Shown here in pieces: positions 301-9,440 of a stretch of DNA of 45,197 bases (positions are counted from its first letter, which is position 1; every line of letters begins with the position of its first letter). Under the pieces are notes generated by a model. It had not been told where the DNA came from. It saw only the letters and a list, made by a program, of their open reading frames with translations, and made no database searches. The stretch comes from Escherichia phage PhiNW-E1, in the sequence record PQ476011.1; one strand, written 5' to 3'. A program made the position numbers and the translations under genes.

Positions 301-745
301 TATGTATAGATGGTATGAATCTCAAGGTTATACCATCTTACCTTCAGGTGTCATCCTTTCCAAGGGTGGCACACCTCTCAAACCTTTTAAGGCGGGTAGT
401 GGTTATTTAGCAGTTAAGCTTAAAAACAAAGAAGGTAAATGGCGTAACGTCTATGTACATCAATTAGTGGCTTATAAGTATTTACCTAAAACAGGTAATG
501 AAATAAATCACAAAGACGGTAATAAGCACAATAATAATGTTAGTAACTTAGAGTGGGTAACAAGAAGTGAAAATAATTATTTAAAATGCAATGGAAATGA
601 TAGGAGTGCCTTAAATAAATACTTAGCAGTATTAAAGGATTGCTTCTTGCAAGGTAAGAGTATAGCAGAAACAGCTAGACTTACTGGTAAAAGTGAACCG
701 AGAGTTTCTTCTATCTTTAAGGAGTGGCGAAATGGCAAAGGCTAG
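293..745 (+). CDS. HNH homing endonuclease (free-standing, between terminase subunit genes)
   Basis: 150 aa; HNH motif region VHQLVAYKY...NHKDGNKHNNNVSNLEWVTRSEN; C-terminal HTH-like segment; paralog of ORF 15186-15602. Confidence 0.75.
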   Translation: MSNMYRWYESQGYTILPSGVILSKGGTPLKPFKAGSGYLAVKLKNKEGKWRNVYVHQLVAYKYLPKTGNEINHKDGNKHNNNVSNLEWVTRSENNYLKCNGNDRSALNKYLAVLKDCFLQGKSIAETARLTGKSEPRVSSIFKEWRNGKG

Positions 746-1898
746 AGAATCACAGGCAGAAGCATTAAAGAGGTGGGAAAACCTTAAGGAGCTGCAAGAC
801 ACTTTTAAATATACAGCGGAAGGTTTGCTTCTCTTTGCAGATACAGTTATTCATAACTTAATTGCAGGCAACCCCCATCTGATTCGTATGCAGGCGGATA
901 TCTTGAAGTTCCTATTTTACGGACACAAGTACCGCCTCATCGAAGCGCCCCGTGGTATCGCTAAGACAACACTATCAGCAATCTATACGGTATTCCGTAT
1001 TATTCATGAACCGCATAAGCGTATCATGGTTGTGTCCCAAAACGCCAAGCGAGCAGAGGAAATCGCAGGTTGGGTAGTTAAAATCTTCCGTGGCTTAGAC
1101 TTTCTTGAGTTTATGCTGCCGGATATCTACGCTGGGGACCGTGCATCCGTTAAGGCGTTTGAGATTCATTACACCCTACGTGGCAGTGACAAGTCGCCTT
1201 CTGTGTCTTGTTACTCAATCGAAGCAGGTATGCAGGGTGCGCGTGCAGATATCATCCTAGCAGATGACGTTGAGTCAATGCAGAATGCTCGTACAGCGGC
1301 AGGACGTGCCTTGCTTGAGGAACTGACCAAGGAGTTTGAATCTATTAACCAGTTTGGTGATATTATCTACCTTGGTACTCCTCAGAACGTAAACTCTATC
1401 TACAATAACCTACCTGCTCGTGGTTACTCTGTTCGTATCTGGACTGCACGTTATCCCTCAGTGGAGCAGGAGCAATGCTATGGTGACTTCCTTGCACCTA
1501 TGATTGTGCAGGATATGAAGGACAACCCCGCACTTCGCTCAGGGTACGGGTTGGATGGTAATAGTGGTGCACCTTGTGCCCCTGAAATGTATGATGATGA
1601 AGTCCTGATTGAGAAGGAAATCTCGCAGGGTGCGGCTAAGTTCCAGCTTCAGTTCATGCTTAACACTCGCATGATGGATGCTGACCGCTATCCGCTACGC
1701 CTGAACAACCTCATCTTCACTTCATTCGGTACAGAGGAAGTCCCTGTGATGCCTACATGGAGCAACGACTCTATTAACATCATTGGCGATGCACCGAAGT
1801 ATGGCAATAAGCCTACAGACTTTATGTATCGCCCTGTGGCCCGACCGTATGAATGGGGCGCTGTCACCCGTAAAATTATGTACATTGACCCCGCTGGT
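732..1898 (+). CDS. Terminase large subunit, exon 1 (ATPase domain through ...KIMYIDPAG)
   Basis: RBS TTAAGGAGTG 718-727 then ATG 732; ORF runs to a stop at 1947-1949 but homology to T7 gp19 stops near YIDPAG; exon end at T1898 inferred from P1 pairing GCTGGT(1893-1898)/GCCAGC(1909-1914). Confidence 0.75.
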
Positions 1899-2644
1899 AA
1901 ACACCTCTGCCAGCGTAAAACCCTCTTAATTCGGTGGAACTCTCACTGAGACAATACCGAGCGAAGCCTGTTGCAATAACAGGAACGTGTAGAGACTAAC
2001 TGTAAGGCCAAGCGGTCTGAAACAGAGGGAGGCGCAAGCCTAAGATATAGTCCGACCTACTAGGTGACTAGTAGAAGTTAAAGTAGCGAATTAACGTAAC
2101 AATTGAAGGGAGTTAAATATGACAGAGCATAAAGTTTATCATATTCGTGTTGTTGGTGAAACTGATGTAATGCAAGGTTATATTGGTGTAACCTCCGATA
2201 TTAAGAAGCGTATGAGAGAGCACAAGTGTGCAGGCCGTCTTTGTGATGGCCGCGAGTACGTTATCTTATTCACTGGTAGCAAAGAAGAGTGTTATGCACT
2301 AGAAGAGAAGCTACGCCCACATGACAACATGTGTTGGAATAAGGGTAAAGGTGGTTATCGCAAAGCAGGTAACATCGAGAAAGGTGAACGCATAAGTATT
2401 GCCACTGAAATCAAGAAAGGACAGCACTTGTCTGTTGCCACTGAGTTCAAGAAAGGCATGACACCTTACAACAAAGGTACTGGCAAAGATTACATATTCA
2501 CTTCTCCAGATGGTGAAGAGTTTCTTGTAACTTGCATTACTGACTTCTGTAAAGAGCACAACCTAACACCTCAGAATATGCGTAAGGTGGCACGTGGTTT
2601 ACGTAAACACCACAAGGGTTGGCTCGCACGTCACGTTCAAACCG
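1899..2644 (+). mobile_element. Group I intron (IA-like core) carrying a homing endonuclease ORF
   Basis: P-like AATTCGGTGGAA 1928-1939; Q-like AATACCGAGC 1953-1962; R-like GTGTAGAGACTAAC 1987-2000; S AAGATATAGTCC 2041-2052; P3 CCCTCT 1921-1926 with AGAGGG 2024-2029; P7 GACTA/TAGTC; omega G at 2644; P10 CCTCT 1904-1908 with GGAGG 2645-2649. Confidence 0.7.
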
Positions 2645-2652
2645 GGAGGTAA
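2119..2652 (+). CDS. GIY-YIG homing endonuclease with NUMOD-like repeats, intron-encoded
   Basis: 177 aa; N-terminal KVYHIRVV...GYIGVT (GIY-YIG-like); repeated IATEIKKGQH / VATEFKKGMTPYNKG segments; RBS AGGGA 2106-2110; stop TAA 2650-2652 lies 8 nt into exon 2. Confidence 0.7.
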   Translation: MTEHKVYHIRVVGETDVMQGYIGVTSDIKKRMREHKCAGRLCDGREYVILFTGSKEECYALEEKLRPHDNMCWNKGKGGYRKAGNIEKGERISIATEIKKGQHLSVATEFKKGMTPYNKGTGKDYIFTSPDGEEFLVTCITDFCKEHNLTPQNMRKVARGLRKHHKGWLARHVQTGR

Positions 2653-3376
2653 GAATGGGGATGAAACGGGTGTGGCTATCGTCTTCCTGCACGGCACATT
2701 CATTTACGTGTATCAGTGCTTCGGTGTGCCAGGCGGATACCGTGAATCGTCCCTGAATCGCATTGTGCAGGCCGCAAAGCAGGCGGGTGTTAAAGAGGTA
2801 TTCATTGAGAAGAACTTTGGTCATGGCGCGTTTGAGGCCGTTATAAAGCCATACTTTGAACGAGAGTGGCCTGTAACTCTGGAAGAGGATTACGCCACAG
2901 GACAGAAAGAGTTGCGTATCATTGAGACGCTGGAGCCACTCATGGCGGCGCACAGGCTCATCTTCAATGCCGAGATGGTCAAGTCTGACCTTGAGTCAGT
3001 ACAGCACTATCCACTTGAACTACGCATGTCCTACAGTCTTTTCAATCAAATGTCGAACATCACGATTGAGAAGAACAGCCTCCGGCACGATGACCGCCTA
3101 GACGCCCTGTATGGCGCTATACGGCAATTAACTTCTCAGATAGACTATGACGAGGTTACACGGATTAATCGCCTCAGAGCGCAGGAGATGCGCGATTACA
3201 TCCATGCTATGAATACACCTCATCTACGCAGGGCAATGCTATATGGAGATTACGGTACTGAGCGAAGAGTGACCAACACTTCCGTAGCGATGCAGCAGCG
3301 AGTTTACGGGCAGAACTACCGAAATAAATCGGCAAGCAGAAATACACTTTCTGCAAGGATTTCAAGGACTTATTAA
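2645..3376 (+). CDS. Terminase large subunit, exon 2 (nuclease domain, begins GGKNGDETGVAIV)
   Basis: Frame continues from exon 1 when 1899-2644 is removed, giving ...YIDPAG|GGKNGDETG..., comparable to the T7 gp19 segment DPSGRGKDETG as I recall it; the ORF-track Met at 2594 is intronic. Confidence 0.75.
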   Translation, partial: GGKNGDETGVAIVFLHGTFIYVYQCFGVPGGYRESSLNRIVQAAKQAGVKEVFIEKNFGHGAFEAVIKPYFEREWPVTLEEDYATGQKELRIIETLEPLMAAHRLIFNAEMVKSDLESVQHYPLELRMSYSLFNQMSNITIEKNSLRHDDRLDALYGAIRQLTSQIDYDEVTRINRLRAQEMRDYIHAMNTPHLRRAMLYGDYGTERRVTNTSVAMQQRVYGQNYRNKSASRNTLSARISRTY

Positions 3377-5548: not shown

Positions 5549-7984
5549 ATGATTCAAAGACTAGGTTCTTCATTAGTTAAATTCAAGAGTAAAATAGCAG
5601 GTGCAATCTGGCGTAACTTGGATGACAAGCTCACCGAGGTTGTATCGCTTAAAGATTTTGGAGCCAAAGGTGATGGTAAGACAAACGACCAAGATGCAGT
5701 AAATGCAGCGATGGCTTCAGGTAAGAGAATTGACGGTGCTGGTGCTACTTACAAAGTATCATCTTTACCTGATATGGAGCGATTCTATAACACCCGCTTC
5801 GTATGGGAACGTTTAGCAGGTCAACCTCTTTACTATGTGAGTAAAGGTTTTATCAATGGTGAACTCTATAAAATCACGGATAACCCTTATTACAATGCTT
5901 GGCCTCAAGACAAGGCGTTTGTATATGAGAATGTGATATATGCACCCTACATGGGTAGCGACCGTCATGGTGTTAGTCGTCTGCATGTATCATGGGTTAA
6001 GTCTGGTGACGATGGTCAAACATGGTCTACTCCAGAGTGGCTAACTGATCTGCATCCAGATTACCCTACAGTGAACTATCATTGTATGAGTATGGGTGTA
6101 TGTCGCAACCGTCTGTTTGCCATGATTGAAACACGTACTTTAGCCAAGAACGCACTAACCAATTGTGCATTGTGGGATCGCCCTATGTCTCGTAGTCTGC
6201 ATCTTACTGGTGGTATCACTAAGGCTGCAAATCAGAAATATGCAACAATCCATGTACCTGATCACGGACTATTCGTGGGCGATTTTGTTAACTTCTCTAA
6301 TTCTGCGGTAACAGGTGTATCAGGTGATATGACTGTTGCAACGGTAATAGATAAGGACAACTTCACGGTTCTTACACCTAACCAGCAGACTTCAGATTTG
6401 AATAACGCTGGAAAGAGTTGGCACATGGGTACTTCTTTCCATAAGTCTCCATGGCGTAAGACAGATCTTGGTCTAATCCCTAGTGTCACAGAGGTGCATA
6501 GCTTTGCTACTATTGATAACAATGGCTTTGTTATGGGCTATCATCAAGGTGATGTAGCTCCACGAGAAGTTGGTCTTTTCTACTTCCCTGATGCTTTCAA
6601 TAGCCCATCTAATTATGTTCGTCGTCAGATACCAGCTGAGTATGAACCAGATGCGGCAGAGCCATGCATCAAGTACTATGACGGTGTATTATACCTTATC
6701 ACTCGTGGTACTCGTGGCGACCAACTAGGAAGCTCTTTGCATCGTAGTAGAGATATAGGTCAGACTTGGGAGTCACTTAGATTTCCACATAATGTTCATC
6801 ATACTACCTTACCTTTTGCTAAAGTAGGAGATGACCTTATTATGTTTGGTTCAGAACGTGCAGAAAATGAATGGGAAGCAGGTGCACCAGATGATCGTTA
6901 CAAGGCATCTTATCCTCGTACCTTCTATGCACGATTGAATGTAAACAATTGGAATGCAGATGATATTGAATGGGTTAACATCACAGACCAAATCTATCAA
7001 GGTGACATTGTGAACTCTAGTGTAGGTGTAGGTTCTGTTGTAGTTAAAGACAGCTACATTTACTATATCTTTGGTGGTGAAAACCATTTCAACCCAATGA
7101 CTTATGGTGACAACACAGATAAAGACCCATTTAAAGGTCATGGACACCCTACTGATATATACTGCTATAAGATGCAGATTGCAAATGACAATCGTGTATC
7201 TCGTAAGTTTACATATGGTGCAACTCCTGGTCAGGCTATACCTACTTTCATGGGTACTGATGGAATACGAAATATCCCTGCACCTTTGTATTTCTCAGAT
7301 AACATTGTTACAGAGGATACTAAAGTTGGACACTTAACACTTAAAGCAAGCACAAGTTCCAATATACGATCTGAAGTGCAGATGGAAGGTGAATATGGCT
7401 TTATTGGCAAGTCTGTTCCAAAGGACAACCCAACTGGTCAACGTTTGATTATTTGTGGTGGAGAAAAGACTTCGTCATCTTCAGGTGCACAGATAACTTT
7501 GCACGGCTCTAATTCAAGTAATGCTAAGCGTATCACTTATAACGGAAATGAGCACCTATTCCAAGGTGCACCAATCATGCCTGCTGTAGATAACCAGTTT
7601 GCTGCTGGTGGACCTAGTAACCGATTCACTACCATCTACATAGGTAGTGACCCTGTTACAACTTCAGATGCTGACCACAAGTACGGTATCTCTGGTATTA
7701 ATACCAAGGTGTTAAAGGCTTGGAGCGGGGTTGGTTTTAAACAGTATGGTTTGAATAGTGAAGCAGAGAGGAACCTTGATAGCATACACTTCGGTGTCTT
7801 GGCTCAGGATATTGTAGCTGCTTTTGAAGCTGAAGGGTTAGATGCCATTAAGTATGGAATTGTGTCCTTCGAAGAAGGTAGGTACGGTGTGAGATATAGT
7901 GAAGTTCTAATCCTAGAGGCTGCCTATACTCGCCATCGTCTTGATAAATTAGAGGAGATGCATGCCACTAATAAAATCAGTTAA
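5549..7984 (+). CDS. Tailspike, endo-N-acetylneuraminidase (endosialidase) type with C-terminal chaperone-like region
   Basis: 811 aa; RBS AAAAGGAGG; lacks a T7 gp17-like N-terminal adaptor domain; length and overall sequence recall the K1E/K1-5 endosialidase (from memory, unverified). Confidence 0.75.
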   Translation: MIQRLGSSLVKFKSKIAGAIWRNLDDKLTEVVSLKDFGAKGDGKTNDQDAVNAAMASGKRIDGAGATYKVSSLPDMERFYNTRFVWERLAGQPLYYVSKGFINGELYKITDNPYYNAWPQDKAFVYENVIYAPYMGSDRHGVSRLHVSWVKSGDDGQTWSTPEWLTDLHPDYPTVNYHCMSMGVCRNRLFAMIETRTLAKNALTNCALWDRPMSRSLHLTGGITKAANQKYATIHVPDHGLFVGDFVNFSNSAVTGVSGDMTVATVIDKDNFTVLTPNQQTSDLNNAGKSWHMGTSFHKSPWRKTDLGLIPSVTEVHSFATIDNNGFVMGYHQGDVAPREVGLFYFPDAFNSPSNYVRRQIPAEYEPDAAEPCIKYYDGVLYLITRGTRGDQLGSSLHRSRDIGQTWESLRFPHNVHHTTLPFAKVGDDLIMFGSERAENEWEAGAPDDRYKASYPRTFYARLNVNNWNADDIEWVNITDQIYQGDIVNSSVGVGSVVVKDSYIYYIFGGENHFNPMTYGDNTDKDPFKGHGHPTDIYCYKMQIANDNRVSRKFTYGATPGQAIPTFMGTDGIRNIPAPLYFSDNIVTEDTKVGHLTLKASTSSNIRSEVQMEGEYGFIGKSVPKDNPTGQRLIICGGEKTSSSSGAQITLHGSNSSNAKRITYNGNEHLFQGAPIMPAVDNQFAAGGPSNRFTTIYIGSDPVTTSDADHKYGISGINTKVLKAWSGVGFKQYGLNSEAERNLDSIHFGVLAQDIVAAFEAEGLDAIKYGIVSFEEGRYGVRYSEVLILEAAYTRHRLDKLEEMHATNKIS

Positions 7985-8113
7985 GCAATCTGCTGTACGC
8001 CAGAACACAGAAGAACTTATTCAATCAGGACGTGACCCTAAGCAGGCATACGCCATTGCCAAGGATGTACAACGTCGTGCCATGAAGAAACCTTCTGCAT
8101 CTTCTGCGTAAGC

Positions 8114-8961
8114 AGGTTAATATCTTAGTGTACACAAGGGCAGACTTAGGTTTGCTCTTAGTGTAATCCAAGGAGGTAACATGCAAGAGGAGAATTGGGA
8201 TGTGTAATGTTGGATATGGAGAAGGTTGAACCTTAGTGTTGTACAAGGATTAACCAAAGTAAAAATTTTGATATAGGCGTGTGTGAGGTGTCTCGCCCTC
8301 GCCCTCGCCGGATTTCCCCCATATGGGGCCGCGCTGCGGTTGGCTTGGGAATTGGGCTAGGCTGGTCCGTCTTCGACGGGTGGCCTAGGGCTTGCCGAAG
8401 TCTGCTCTTAGTGGCTGCACAAGGAGAACGCCTAGGAAGCGCTAGGGCACGCCTTAGTATTGGACAAGGTGATTGCCTTAGTGCAACCGCTTAGGGCTTA
8501 CACAGGCCGTTTTAGGGCCATTCCTGAGCATTTGACAGGGTGAGCGTGGGTTGGCTATCTGTTCGTTTCGCTCCACTACGTTACGCTACACTCACCGCGC
8601 TTGTGTACCTTAGGTTATTCCTTGATGGATAGCTTAGGTTAGCCTTAGTGGACTACCTTAGTTAAAGCCTTAGTGCTTAGCTTAGTATCAGCTTAGTAGT
8701 GTACCTTAGTCAGACTTAGTGTCTTCTCTTAGTGATTGCACATGCAAGCATGTAAGATGCCATTAGGTCGCGGTCGGTAGACCGCTAAAGAAAGAGAATA
8801 GTAATAAGATGCAGTAGGAGGAACACCAGAAACCTAGCCAACCTAGTCTATCCTAGCTCTGTATCTATTGCTTTCCTTAGTCTCACATGTTAGACAACCT
8901 ATGTTTATCTTAGTAGTTGTGACATGTATCACATAAATAATCTATCTTAGTGAAACTTAGT
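8114..8961. repeat. Array of about 25 CTTAGT-type short direct repeats in an ORF-poor region (presumed genome terminus / packaging region)
   Basis: Five longer units CTTAGTR-N4-6-CAAGG at 8114-8129, 8147-8163, 8232-8248, 8407-8424, 8458-8474; a GC-rich island at about 8285-8600 holds CTCGCC x3 (8292-8309) and palindrome CCCCCATATGGGG (8316-8328). Confidence 0.6.
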
Positions 8962-8962
8962 G

Positions 8963-8991
8963 TTGACATAGGCAATCAACTGGTATACATT
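8963..8991 (+). promoter_or_regulatory. Host sigma70-type early promoter
   Basis: TTGACA 8963-8968, 17-bp spacer, TACATT 8986-8991. Confidence 0.5.
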
Positions 8992-9141
8992 AGCAATCAC
9001 TGAGACGGACCTAGCAAGCTGTCTCAGGTTATAAGCAGGAGAATTGATGCGTAAGCCATAGCTAGTGGATGTAGTCGCATGAAGGCTTGAGTAAGGGGCC
9101 GCTTAATACCTTCTTCCTCTGGAGACAACGCTTATAACACT

Positions 9142-9154
9142 GCTCTTTAACAAT
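9142..9154 (+). promoter_or_regulatory. Conserved early-region motif GCTCTTTAACAAT, copy 1 (candidate RNase III processing site)
   Basis: One of four copies of a 13-mer in intergenic early-region positions; the same motif is in the T7 gene 0.3 leader as I recall it. Confidence 0.4.
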
Positions 9155-9212
9155 CTGCTTAGTGTAACCTATGTATGCCGTGGTTAATTACTTATTGAAT
9201 GAAGGATTAACT

Positions 9213-9440
9213 ATGAAAGTACAAGTAAAAGCGTACAACATGCCAGTTGATGAGATTCAGCACTTCCTCGATAAGGGTTATGACTTATGTAAGATGCGCA
9301 CACCAGATAACTATGACTACTCACCTAAATATCTGCATTATATTGATCTTAAGATGGGTAAGAAGTTAGTTATTACAGGTACTGCATATAACCGCATTAT
9401 CAAAGTTCTTAAAGAGGGTGCTAATCATGACATTAAATAA
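9213..9440 (+). CDS. Early hypothetical protein
   Basis: 75 aa from ATG 9213 (RBS AAGGA 9203-9207); first ORF after the early promoter. Confidence 0.5.
   Translation: MKVQVKAYNMPVDEIQHFLDKGYDLCKMRTPDNYDYSPKYLHYIDLKMGKKLVITGTAYNRIIKVLKEGANHDIK

Follow-up and report, generated by a model that had tools for sequence, protein, structure and literature searches.

The genome records of K1E-, K1-5-, and SP6-type phages carry exact repeats at both ends, with lengths of 288 bp in K1E, 286 bp in mutPK1A2, 267 bp in KAW1A4500, 234 bp in K1-5, and 174 bp in SP6, and the annotated repeat of Lelliottia phage phD2B is 262 bp long. The repeat of mutPK1A2 carries the annotation "redundant repeat" in its record. 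The termini of KAW1A4500 were recognized as abrupt read ends, giving a repeat of 266 bp (PMC6563267), and for UAB_Phi78, a combination of Bal31 digestion with run-off sequencing led to a repeat of 179 bp (PMC4837284). Across the SP6 branch, the repeat starts with (TC)TCG(C/G)CCTCG... and ends with ...GG(C/G)(T/G)TA, followed by TCTGTTC; the RefSeq annotation of UAB_Phi78 draws the repeat about 15 nt to the left of these SP6-type boundaries.

For T7, we retrieved the genome ends and measured a repeat of 160 bp, a palindrome, CCCCCATAGGGGG, at nt 26 to 38 with its centre at nt 32, and C(C/T)TAAAG units that all lie on one strand with a period of 13 nt, 2 of them before, 3 inside, and 11 after the repeat. 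The initial annotation of the sequence studied here had named a similar palindrome and reiterated short repeats at the T7 terminus, and this is correct. HATCTGTT is the strictly conserved core of the class II pause and termination signals of T7 RNA polymerase, and one such signal lies at the T7 concatemer junction, where pausing has been demonstrated and connected with packaging. The paused complex of polymerase and lysozyme reportedly interacts with gp18 and gp19, leading to maturation and the start of packaging (PMC3276506).

The window, i.e., the whole stretch of DNA analyzed here, comprises 45,197 nt from Escherichia phage PhiNW-E1 (PQ476011.1). Its best matches by megablast were members of Vectrevirus (K1E/K1-5-like phages of the Molineuxvirinae, SP6 supergroup), with 86 to 98% identity to the Vectrevirus records. 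Judged by nucleotide similarity, gene order, the endosialidase tailspike (5549-7984; Pfam matches PF12217, PF12219, PF12195, and PF12218), and SP6-type promoters, of which there are 11 in the window with the form ATTTACTGGACACTATAGAAG, the genome appears to belong to this genus. Base 1 of the window is the GTG start codon of terS, which occupies positions 1 to 300 (PF11123; E value of 7e-16), and terL is split by an intron, with a nuclease domain matching PF22530 (E value of 3e-33); both terminase genes are of the T7 type. When the last 700 and the first 700 bases of the window were joined, they aligned in one piece, at 99.3% identity, to the segment of fTuEco01 that runs from the tail fibre through the holin to terS, and, compared with that phage, the junction is seamless and falls inside holin/terS. 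Since the two ends of the window join without a seam and the first base is the start of terS, we take the sequence to be a complete genome that was circularized by assembly and rotated to terS, which bears out the earlier suggestion of a rotated representation.

That suggestion had been made together with the proposal that the linear ends and the terminal repeat map to the interval from 8114 to 8961, and homology supports this proposal as well. Among linear records with defined ends, those of K1E (AM084415), KAW1A4500, fTuEco01, ACG-C91, and mutPK1A2 begin at the equivalent of position 8291 or 8292 (TCTCGCCCTCGCCCTCGCC), and the records of K1E, K1-5, AAPEc6, and VEc3 terminate at the equivalent of 8557 (...GGCTA). 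The comparison with SP6/K1E-type genome termini that the initial annotation had proposed thus gives matching boundary sequences in the relatives with defined ends, and the left end varies by no more than 2 nt among them (TCTCGCC in K1E, CTCGCC in mutPK1A2, and TCGCC in K1-5). On this basis, the left virion end is predicted at 8291, with an uncertainty of +0 to +2 nt, and the right virion end is predicted at 8557. The predicted repeat is 97.9% identical to the 267-bp repeat of KAW1A4500, and it is also the GC-rich island that had been noticed in the interval, with 59.6% G+C compared to 44.9% over the window as a whole and about 40% in the flanking DNA. No 15-mer of 8291-8557 was found elsewhere in the window. 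The repeat is present only once here because the assembly was circularized and rotated to terS, and the virion DNA would therefore be about 45,464 bp long and carry 8291-8557 at both ends. Only this segment of the flagged interval is predicted to be terminal repeat, and the rest would be unique flanking DNA. The features of the region are listed in Table 1.

Table 1. Features at and around the predicted genome ends (window coordinates; here and in the text, a caret marks a repeat boundary or cut)
Feature	Position	Strand	Basis or remark
Long-form units before the repeat	8124-8139, 8157-8173, 8232-8248	+	Motif match
Noncoding right-arm tail just before the repeat	8112-8290	+	Homologous segment precedes the right repeat in relatives
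Conserved pre-terminus block, CAAAGTAAAAATTTTGATATAGGCGTGTGTGAGGTG	8255-8290	+	Alignment of relatives, IMG/VR
Predicted direct terminal repeat, 267 bp, single copy in the window	8291-8557	+	Record starts and ends of relatives
CTCGCC x3, extreme left genome end	8292-8309	+	Seen directly
Palindrome, CCCCCATATGGGG	8316-8328	.	Centre 32 nt from the left terminus
Long-form units inside the repeat	8407-8424, 8453-8469	+	Short units at 8477 and 8490 come next
TATCTGTT, a match to HATCTGTT, the class II pause/termination signal of T7-type RNA polymerase	8556-8563	+	Straddles the repeat boundary 8557^8558
Head-to-tail array of 10 CTTAGK and one CTTAGC	8609-8733	+	Motif match
Four more CTTAGT units (8876, 8909, 8946, 8956)	8876-8961	+	Same positions in relatives
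Sigma-70 type early promoter, TTGACA-17-TACATT	8963-8991	+	10/12 matches; 673 nt from the predicted left end

The relatives in which a segment homologous to the right-arm tail precedes the right repeat are K1E, K1-5, SP6, mutPK1A2, and KAW1A4500. In PhiNW-E1, this tail holds three long-form units, one CTTAGG (8145), and a remnant ORF (8181-8207); a small hydrophobic ORF stands before the repeat in the SP6/UAB_Phi78 group, whereas only 9 codons remain here. The pre-terminus block is the most widely conserved part of the region, and it and the first approximately 40 nt of the repeat were the only part that was still matched in Proteus, Klebsiella, and Lelliottia phages in a blastn search with the region. 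The pre-terminus context was shared by 19 of the 31 IMG/VR pattern matches. The block probably provides the recognition and cutting context for the left-end cut.

The triple CTCGCC and the palindrome both lie exactly where the initial annotation had placed them. The former is kept as CTCG(C/G)CC x3 in all relatives examined. The strict palindrome within the latter is CCCCATATGGGG (8317-8328). Of the seven other family members compared, six have the centre at nt 31 to 33.5, and in K1-5 the search matched a different element. The IMG/VR loci retain the C-run and G-run arms around differing centres (ATA, ATAT, TAT, and GTA). Palindromes of 12 nt are not rare in the window (14 found and 11 expected), and this one therefore counts only through its conservation and its fixed offset from the end.

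The interval had been described as poor in ORFs and as lying between the tailspike stop and the first early promoter. The second description holds on the promoter side, but on the other side the interval starts after a conserved ORF of 49 aa (7962-8111; phrog_2423) that immediately precedes it and not at the tailspike stop at 7984. The first holds throughout, since its single larger ORF, 8279-8494, does not stay open in relatives and has no family match. This ORF, which corresponds to K1E gp48 and KAW1A4500_00058, gave no match in Pfam or PHROG, and its frame is broken or absent in K1E, mutPK1A2, K1-5, SP6, and phD2B; we reject it as a gene. The interval as a whole is noncoding. A single strong match to a host promoter was found in 7900-9400, and the -10 hexamer and transcript start of this early promoter are conserved in phD2B. 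No phage promoter that could be an analogue of T7 phiOL was found in 8114-8961; all 11 ACACTATAG promoters lie elsewhere, and those upstream of the junction are at 101, 3384, and 5053, the last of these being the nearest. Transcription from these three would run into the junction. Over 7900-9400, there was no Rfam match at an E value of ≤1 and no terminator-like site on the + strand. An AT-rich stretch with 30 to 32% G+C extends over 8850-8999.

The interval also holds many short repeated units. The exact hexamer CTTAGT occurs 18 times in 8114-8961, where 0.3 copies are expected, while the other 44.3 kb of the window has 15 copies on the + strand (Poisson P value of approximately 2e-26), and looser definitions give 22 CTTAGK, 23 CTTAG, and 25 CYTAGK units. 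Every counted unit is on the + strand, and the number of CTTAG forms on the - strand is zero. The repeated units reported in the initial annotation are real, but its figure of about 25 CTTAGT is a slight overcount that is reached only with CYTAGK. The five units of the long form CTTAGTR-N4-6-CAAGG that it had counted are confirmed (Table 1), compared to about 0.09 expected by chance.

The two classes of units differ in where they are found. In each relative examined, as in PhiNW-E1, long-form units stand only ahead of the repeat or within it, and homologues of the two in-repeat units occur inside the repeats of K1E, K1-5, SP6, mutPK1A2, and KAW1A4500. Of the 22 CTTAGK units in the flagged interval, 4 precede the repeat, 4 lie within it, and 14 follow it, with a 15th just outside the interval at 9158. 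Spacings in the head-to-tail array to the right of the repeat are 24, 11, 13, 12, 12, 11, 13, 10, and 13 nt, and a single base separates the last CTTAGT unit from the -35 hexamer of the early promoter. The counts and positions of the units recur in K1E, K1-5, mutPK1A2, KAW1A4500, and SP6, and in 10 uncultured genomes from IMG/VR, CTTAG is the commonest 5-mer (TTAGT in one locus), with nearly all copies on one strand. The strict strand bias, the period of about 12 nt, and the conserved layout argue that the arrays have a function. The short-repeat arrays of these phages are not known to have any demonstrated function. Most likely, the CTTAGT arrays are putative sites for a phage-encoded DNA-binding protein that organizes the junction.

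At the right boundary of the repeat, TATCTGTT coincides exactly with the predicted cut and is on the transcribed strand. It does not vary at this position among eight named relatives, which represent the three genera Vectrevirus, Zindervirus, and Tuodvirus, or among the IMG/VR loci for which the sequence reaches far enough (10 of 10), where it lies 209 to 327 nt from the pre-terminus block and the flanks diverge. The coincidence of the right repeat boundary with a pause signal that is kept in every relative examined is new here. The window as a whole shows no enrichment of HATCTGTT (7 copies compared to 6.2 expected), and the meaning of this copy therefore rests on its position and conservation only. 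Pause-coupled processing, which is documented in T7 only, may apply to this junction. A tblastn search with T7 lysozyme (gp3.5) gave no significant match in the window (best E value of 0.013 over 26 aa), and we found no evidence in the accessible literature that an SP6/K1E-type polymerase responds to class II signals; VSW-3 polymerase, a related single-subunit enzyme, ignores them.

Taken together, the interval is very probably the concatemer junction of a K1E-like (Vectrevirus) podophage in a circularized assembly that kept one copy of the terminal repeat. By homology of the ends, the virion DNA would be linear, starting at 8291 (TCTCGCC...) and ending at 8557 (...GGCTA). By analogy to T7, replication would produce head-to-tail concatemers with a single repeat between genomes, and the phage RNA polymerase, transcribing rightward from a last upstream promoter at about 5053, would enter the junction and pause at TATCTGTT at the right edge of the repeat. 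The paused complex might then help the T7-type terminase to make the right-end cut at 8557^8558, after which the DNA would be packaged leftward, with a final cut at 8290^8291 that adjoins the strongly conserved segment 8255-8330 including the palindrome; the repeat would be duplicated by DNA synthesis.

An account in which the physical ends lie elsewhere, or in which the DNA is circularly permuted by headful packaging and the likeness to the ends of relatives is mere conservation, would fit an assembly that is circular and lacks a duplicated repeat. We give it almost no weight, since the terminase is of the T7 type, all relatives with defined ends agree, and the boundaries are identical or nearly identical to those of KAW1A4500, whose ends are abrupt read ends. 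It is also very improbable that the repeat-rich region is a replication origin, made up of iteron-like repeats beside AT-rich DNA. One-stranded units in many copies are indeed present, as are AT-rich stretches (30 to 32% G+C at 8850-8999), and a secondary origin of T7 lies close to the left genome end, but T7-type origins depend on a phage promoter, of which there is none in 8114-8961, and the region coincides base for base with the mapped ends of relatives. With the interval read as a concatemer junction, the functions of its parts can still be seen differently. The CTTAGT arrays might serve genome entry or early transcription instead of packaging, with the sites in the first approximately 670 bp to enter the cell being read by a host or phage protein that governs internalization or the early promoter. 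This deserves to be weighed because the short-form units reach the first host promoter both in T7 and in this phage: here they fill the space between the repeat and the sigma-70 promoter, the last one abutting the -35 hexamer, and in T7 a CTTAAAG unit at about 466, which we take to overlap the -35 element of promoter A1, precedes the A1 start at 498. The first promoter, boxA, and the first gene also stand at nearly the T7 distances from the end. Yet the units before and inside the repeat place part of the arrays at the right extremity of the genome, the last part to enter, and no binding protein is known, so we think it rather unlikely that entry is what the arrays are for.

The role of TATCTGTT is the other point on which the proposed junction could work differently, as this sequence may be only a part of the recognition and cutting site of the terminase, unconnected to any pausing of the polymerase in this group of phages. 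In all family members, the cut falls within the motif (TA^TCTGTT), T7 lysozyme lacks a homologue in the window, and, besides VSW-3 polymerase ignoring class II signals, nothing was found to indicate that SP6-type enzymes respond to them. Against this, the 7-nt core and a permitted preceding base have been retained on the transcribed strand from T7 to Tuodvirus, and T7 has the identical sequence in the same place as a demonstrated pause site linked to packaging. Cutting and pausing are, moreover, not mutually exclusive roles, and we regard a site for the terminase only as possible but doubtful, preferring a pause signal on which the right-end cut would be made.

The sequence of the unit depends on the lineage, being CCTAAAG in T7, CTTAGT in the SP6/K1E group, and CATGATG in phD2B, and a unit that turns over while the architecture stays the same would be expected from coevolution with a phage-encoded DNA-binding protein. 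The fixed elements would be the long-form class ahead of and within the repeat, a short-form array of about 12- to 13-nt period that reaches the first host promoter, and a palindrome exactly 32 nt from the end. We put forward, as a tentative idea that we consider less than likely, that short-repeat arrays are a conserved functional module of all T7-supergroup ends and that their units coevolve with a DNA-binding protein of the phage such as the small terminase. The small terminase would be the obvious candidate for binding the units of the array. If this is true, the arrays specify whose concatemers get processed.

The ends of K1E-, K1-5-, and SP6-type phages have been mapped by experiment and published, and the junction is homologous to them; the feature is therefore already known and ordinary for this phage family, with nothing in it to surprise specialists in T7- or SP6-type phages. 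What we add are the predicted coordinates of 8291 and 8557, with the 267-bp repeat collapsed to a single copy, the location of the pause signal at the cut, the division of the units into two classes, the constant offset of the palindrome at 32 nt, and the dependence of the unit on the lineage. The deposited or assembled sequence should be relinearized to start at 8291 and to carry 8291-8557 at both ends. True ends matter for annotation, for phage engineering and rebooting, and for avoiding spurious genes, e.g., the ORF that is drawn across the repeat in some relatives. The comparative evidence also restates a question that has stood since the T7 genome, namely, the role of the short units around the terminal repeat, and a further one, why a polymerase pause signal sits on the cut site in distantly related phages.

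Compared with its relatives, the junction is homologous in sequence to the ends of K1E, K1-5, KAW1A4500, and mutPK1A2 (Vectrevirus) and of SP6 and UAB_Phi78 (Zindervirus). These ends have the same start (TCTCGCCCTCGCC...), the same end (...GGGCTA^TCTGTTCG), the same palindrome and CTTAGT arrays, and the same location, with the tailspike module on one side and the early promoter on the other, and they differ in the length of the repeat, which ranges from 174 to 288 bp in this group and is 267 bp here. Lelliottia phage phD2B (Tuodvirus) shares the pre-terminus block, a start with CTCGGCC x3, the palindrome, the sequence GGTA^TCTGTT at the end of its 262-bp annotated repeat, and the downstream promoter with boxA. 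In contrast to PhiNW-E1, its unit is CATGATG, in 9 or 10 copies, and it has no CTTAGK units and one lone CTTAG.

There is no detectable overall sequence similarity to the ends of T7, and the likeness is one of architecture. Both genomes start with TCTC, have a C-run/G-run palindrome centred at nt 32, and have ATCTGTT at the right boundary of the repeat. The reported cuts are 1 nt apart (CCCT^ATCTGTT in T7 and GGCTA^TCTGTT here), which is within the error of run-off sequencing. In both, short units on one strand stand before and inside the repeat and, in the largest number, beyond it as far as the first host promoter; the CTTAGT arrays correspond to the T7 arrays of CCTAAAG, with 8609-8733 matching the T7 array to the right of the repeat. 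Distances from the end are also similar, with the rrn-type boxA at 851 (812 in T7) and the first gene at 923 (925 in T7). Unlike in T7, the unit is CTTAGT and not CCTAAAG, its period is about 12 nt instead of 13 nt, and there is an extra class of long-form units. T7 has the phage promoter phiOL at 405, three annotated host promoters (A1 to A3), and a lysozyme gene, whereas this phage has no phage promoter near its left end, a single strong host promoter match in 7900-9400, and no T7 lysozyme gene in the window.

The early leader, from the sigma-70-type promoter to the ATG at 9213 that opens the first early gene, carries a boxA-like element, TGCTCTTTAACAATCTG, that shares 14 identical nucleotides with the boxA antiterminator of Escherichia coli rrnB, for which a published primer sequence ends in ...ctgctctttaacaatttatcag (PMC2176067). 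We find an even longer identity, 16 nucleotides, in T7 at nucleotides 813-828, in the interval between promoter A3 and gene 0.3, and Lelliottia phage phD2B has CCGCTCTTTAACAAC at the equivalent position. The element is probably a NusB/S10 site, one that would render the host polymerase termination-resistant on the early transcript. A short way downstream of the promoter lies a perfect inverted repeat, which may fold into a hairpin in the leader RNA or mark a site of processing; phD2B keeps its first arm together with the -10 hexamer of the promoter. A further stem is found in the spacer separating the two groups of short CTTAGT-type units, with no T-run on either strand (see the table).

Features of the early leader, the terminal repeat region, the terminase genes and the phage promoters
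Feature	Window position	Details
HNH endonuclease ORF	293-745	PF13392, E 2e-11; immediately after terS
terL N-terminal ORF	693-1949	
Group I intron in terL	1826-2074	RF00028, 61 bits
Endonuclease-like ORF in terL	2119-2652	GIY-YIG/NUMOD matches, weak
terL nuclease-domain ORF	2594-3376	PF22530
9-codon ORF	8181-8207	ATG CAA GAG GAG AAT TGG GAT GTG TAA
71-aa ORF	8279-8494	GTG start; nearly all within the terminal repeat
Stem	8768-8787	GGTCGCGGTCGGTAGACCGC; 6-bp G+C stem (GCGGTC/GACCGC)
Inverted repeat	9001-9028	CTGAGAC-N14-GTCTCAG; perfect, 7 bp
boxA-like element	9141-9157	TGCTCTTTAACAATCTG
SP6-type promoters	101, 3384, 5053, 14956, 17685, 18533, 22486, 23255, 24401, 27571, 32652	+ strand

Two small ORFs are present in the region of the predicted terminal repeat, the 9-codon one ahead of it. 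Counterparts of the 71-aa ORF carry gene annotations in K1E (gp48) and KAW1A4500 (KAW1A4500_00058); K1E, mutPK1A2, K1-5, SP6 and phD2B do not conserve its frame, the ORF has no family match in Pfam or PHROG, and it is probably a false gene call driven by G+C content. The 9-codon ORF follows a ribosome-binding site that is strong (AAGGAGGT) and appears to be a degenerate remnant; at the equivalent place SP6 has an annotated 25-aa ORF (gp52) and UAB_Phi78 a small annotated ORF with a hydrophobic product. All 11 SP6-type promoters in the window (consensus ATTTACTGGACACTATAGAAG) are on the same strand, and the 3 kb or so that precede the concatemer junction contain none of them.

The large terminase gene, terL (693-3376), is split, its N-terminal and nuclease-domain ORFs being set apart by the intron and the endonuclease-like ORF (1826-2652). 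This arrangement is already known, since it is annotated likewise in K1E (gp40A/40.5/40B) and also in phages C, D and R, several Klebsiella phages and phD2B. Alignment of the window with fTuEco01, KAW1A4500 and others ends at about 293-296, and the HNH ORF therefore has the appearance of a homing-endonuclease insertion absent from these relatives.

The UAB_Phi78 RefSeq record (NC_020414.2) holds a single repeat copy annotated as 1-180, and whereas SP6 and all other relatives use a TCTCTCGG start and a GGGCTA end, this repeat starts with TAGGCGTGTGTCAGG, about 15 nt further left, and ends about 10 nt short, an offset that probably reflects imprecise run-off reads or annotation. In phD2B (NC_025450.1), the reiterated unit adjoining the terminal repeat is CATGATG, with 9-10 copies at 330-660; it replaces CTTAGT, but the junction architecture is otherwise conserved.
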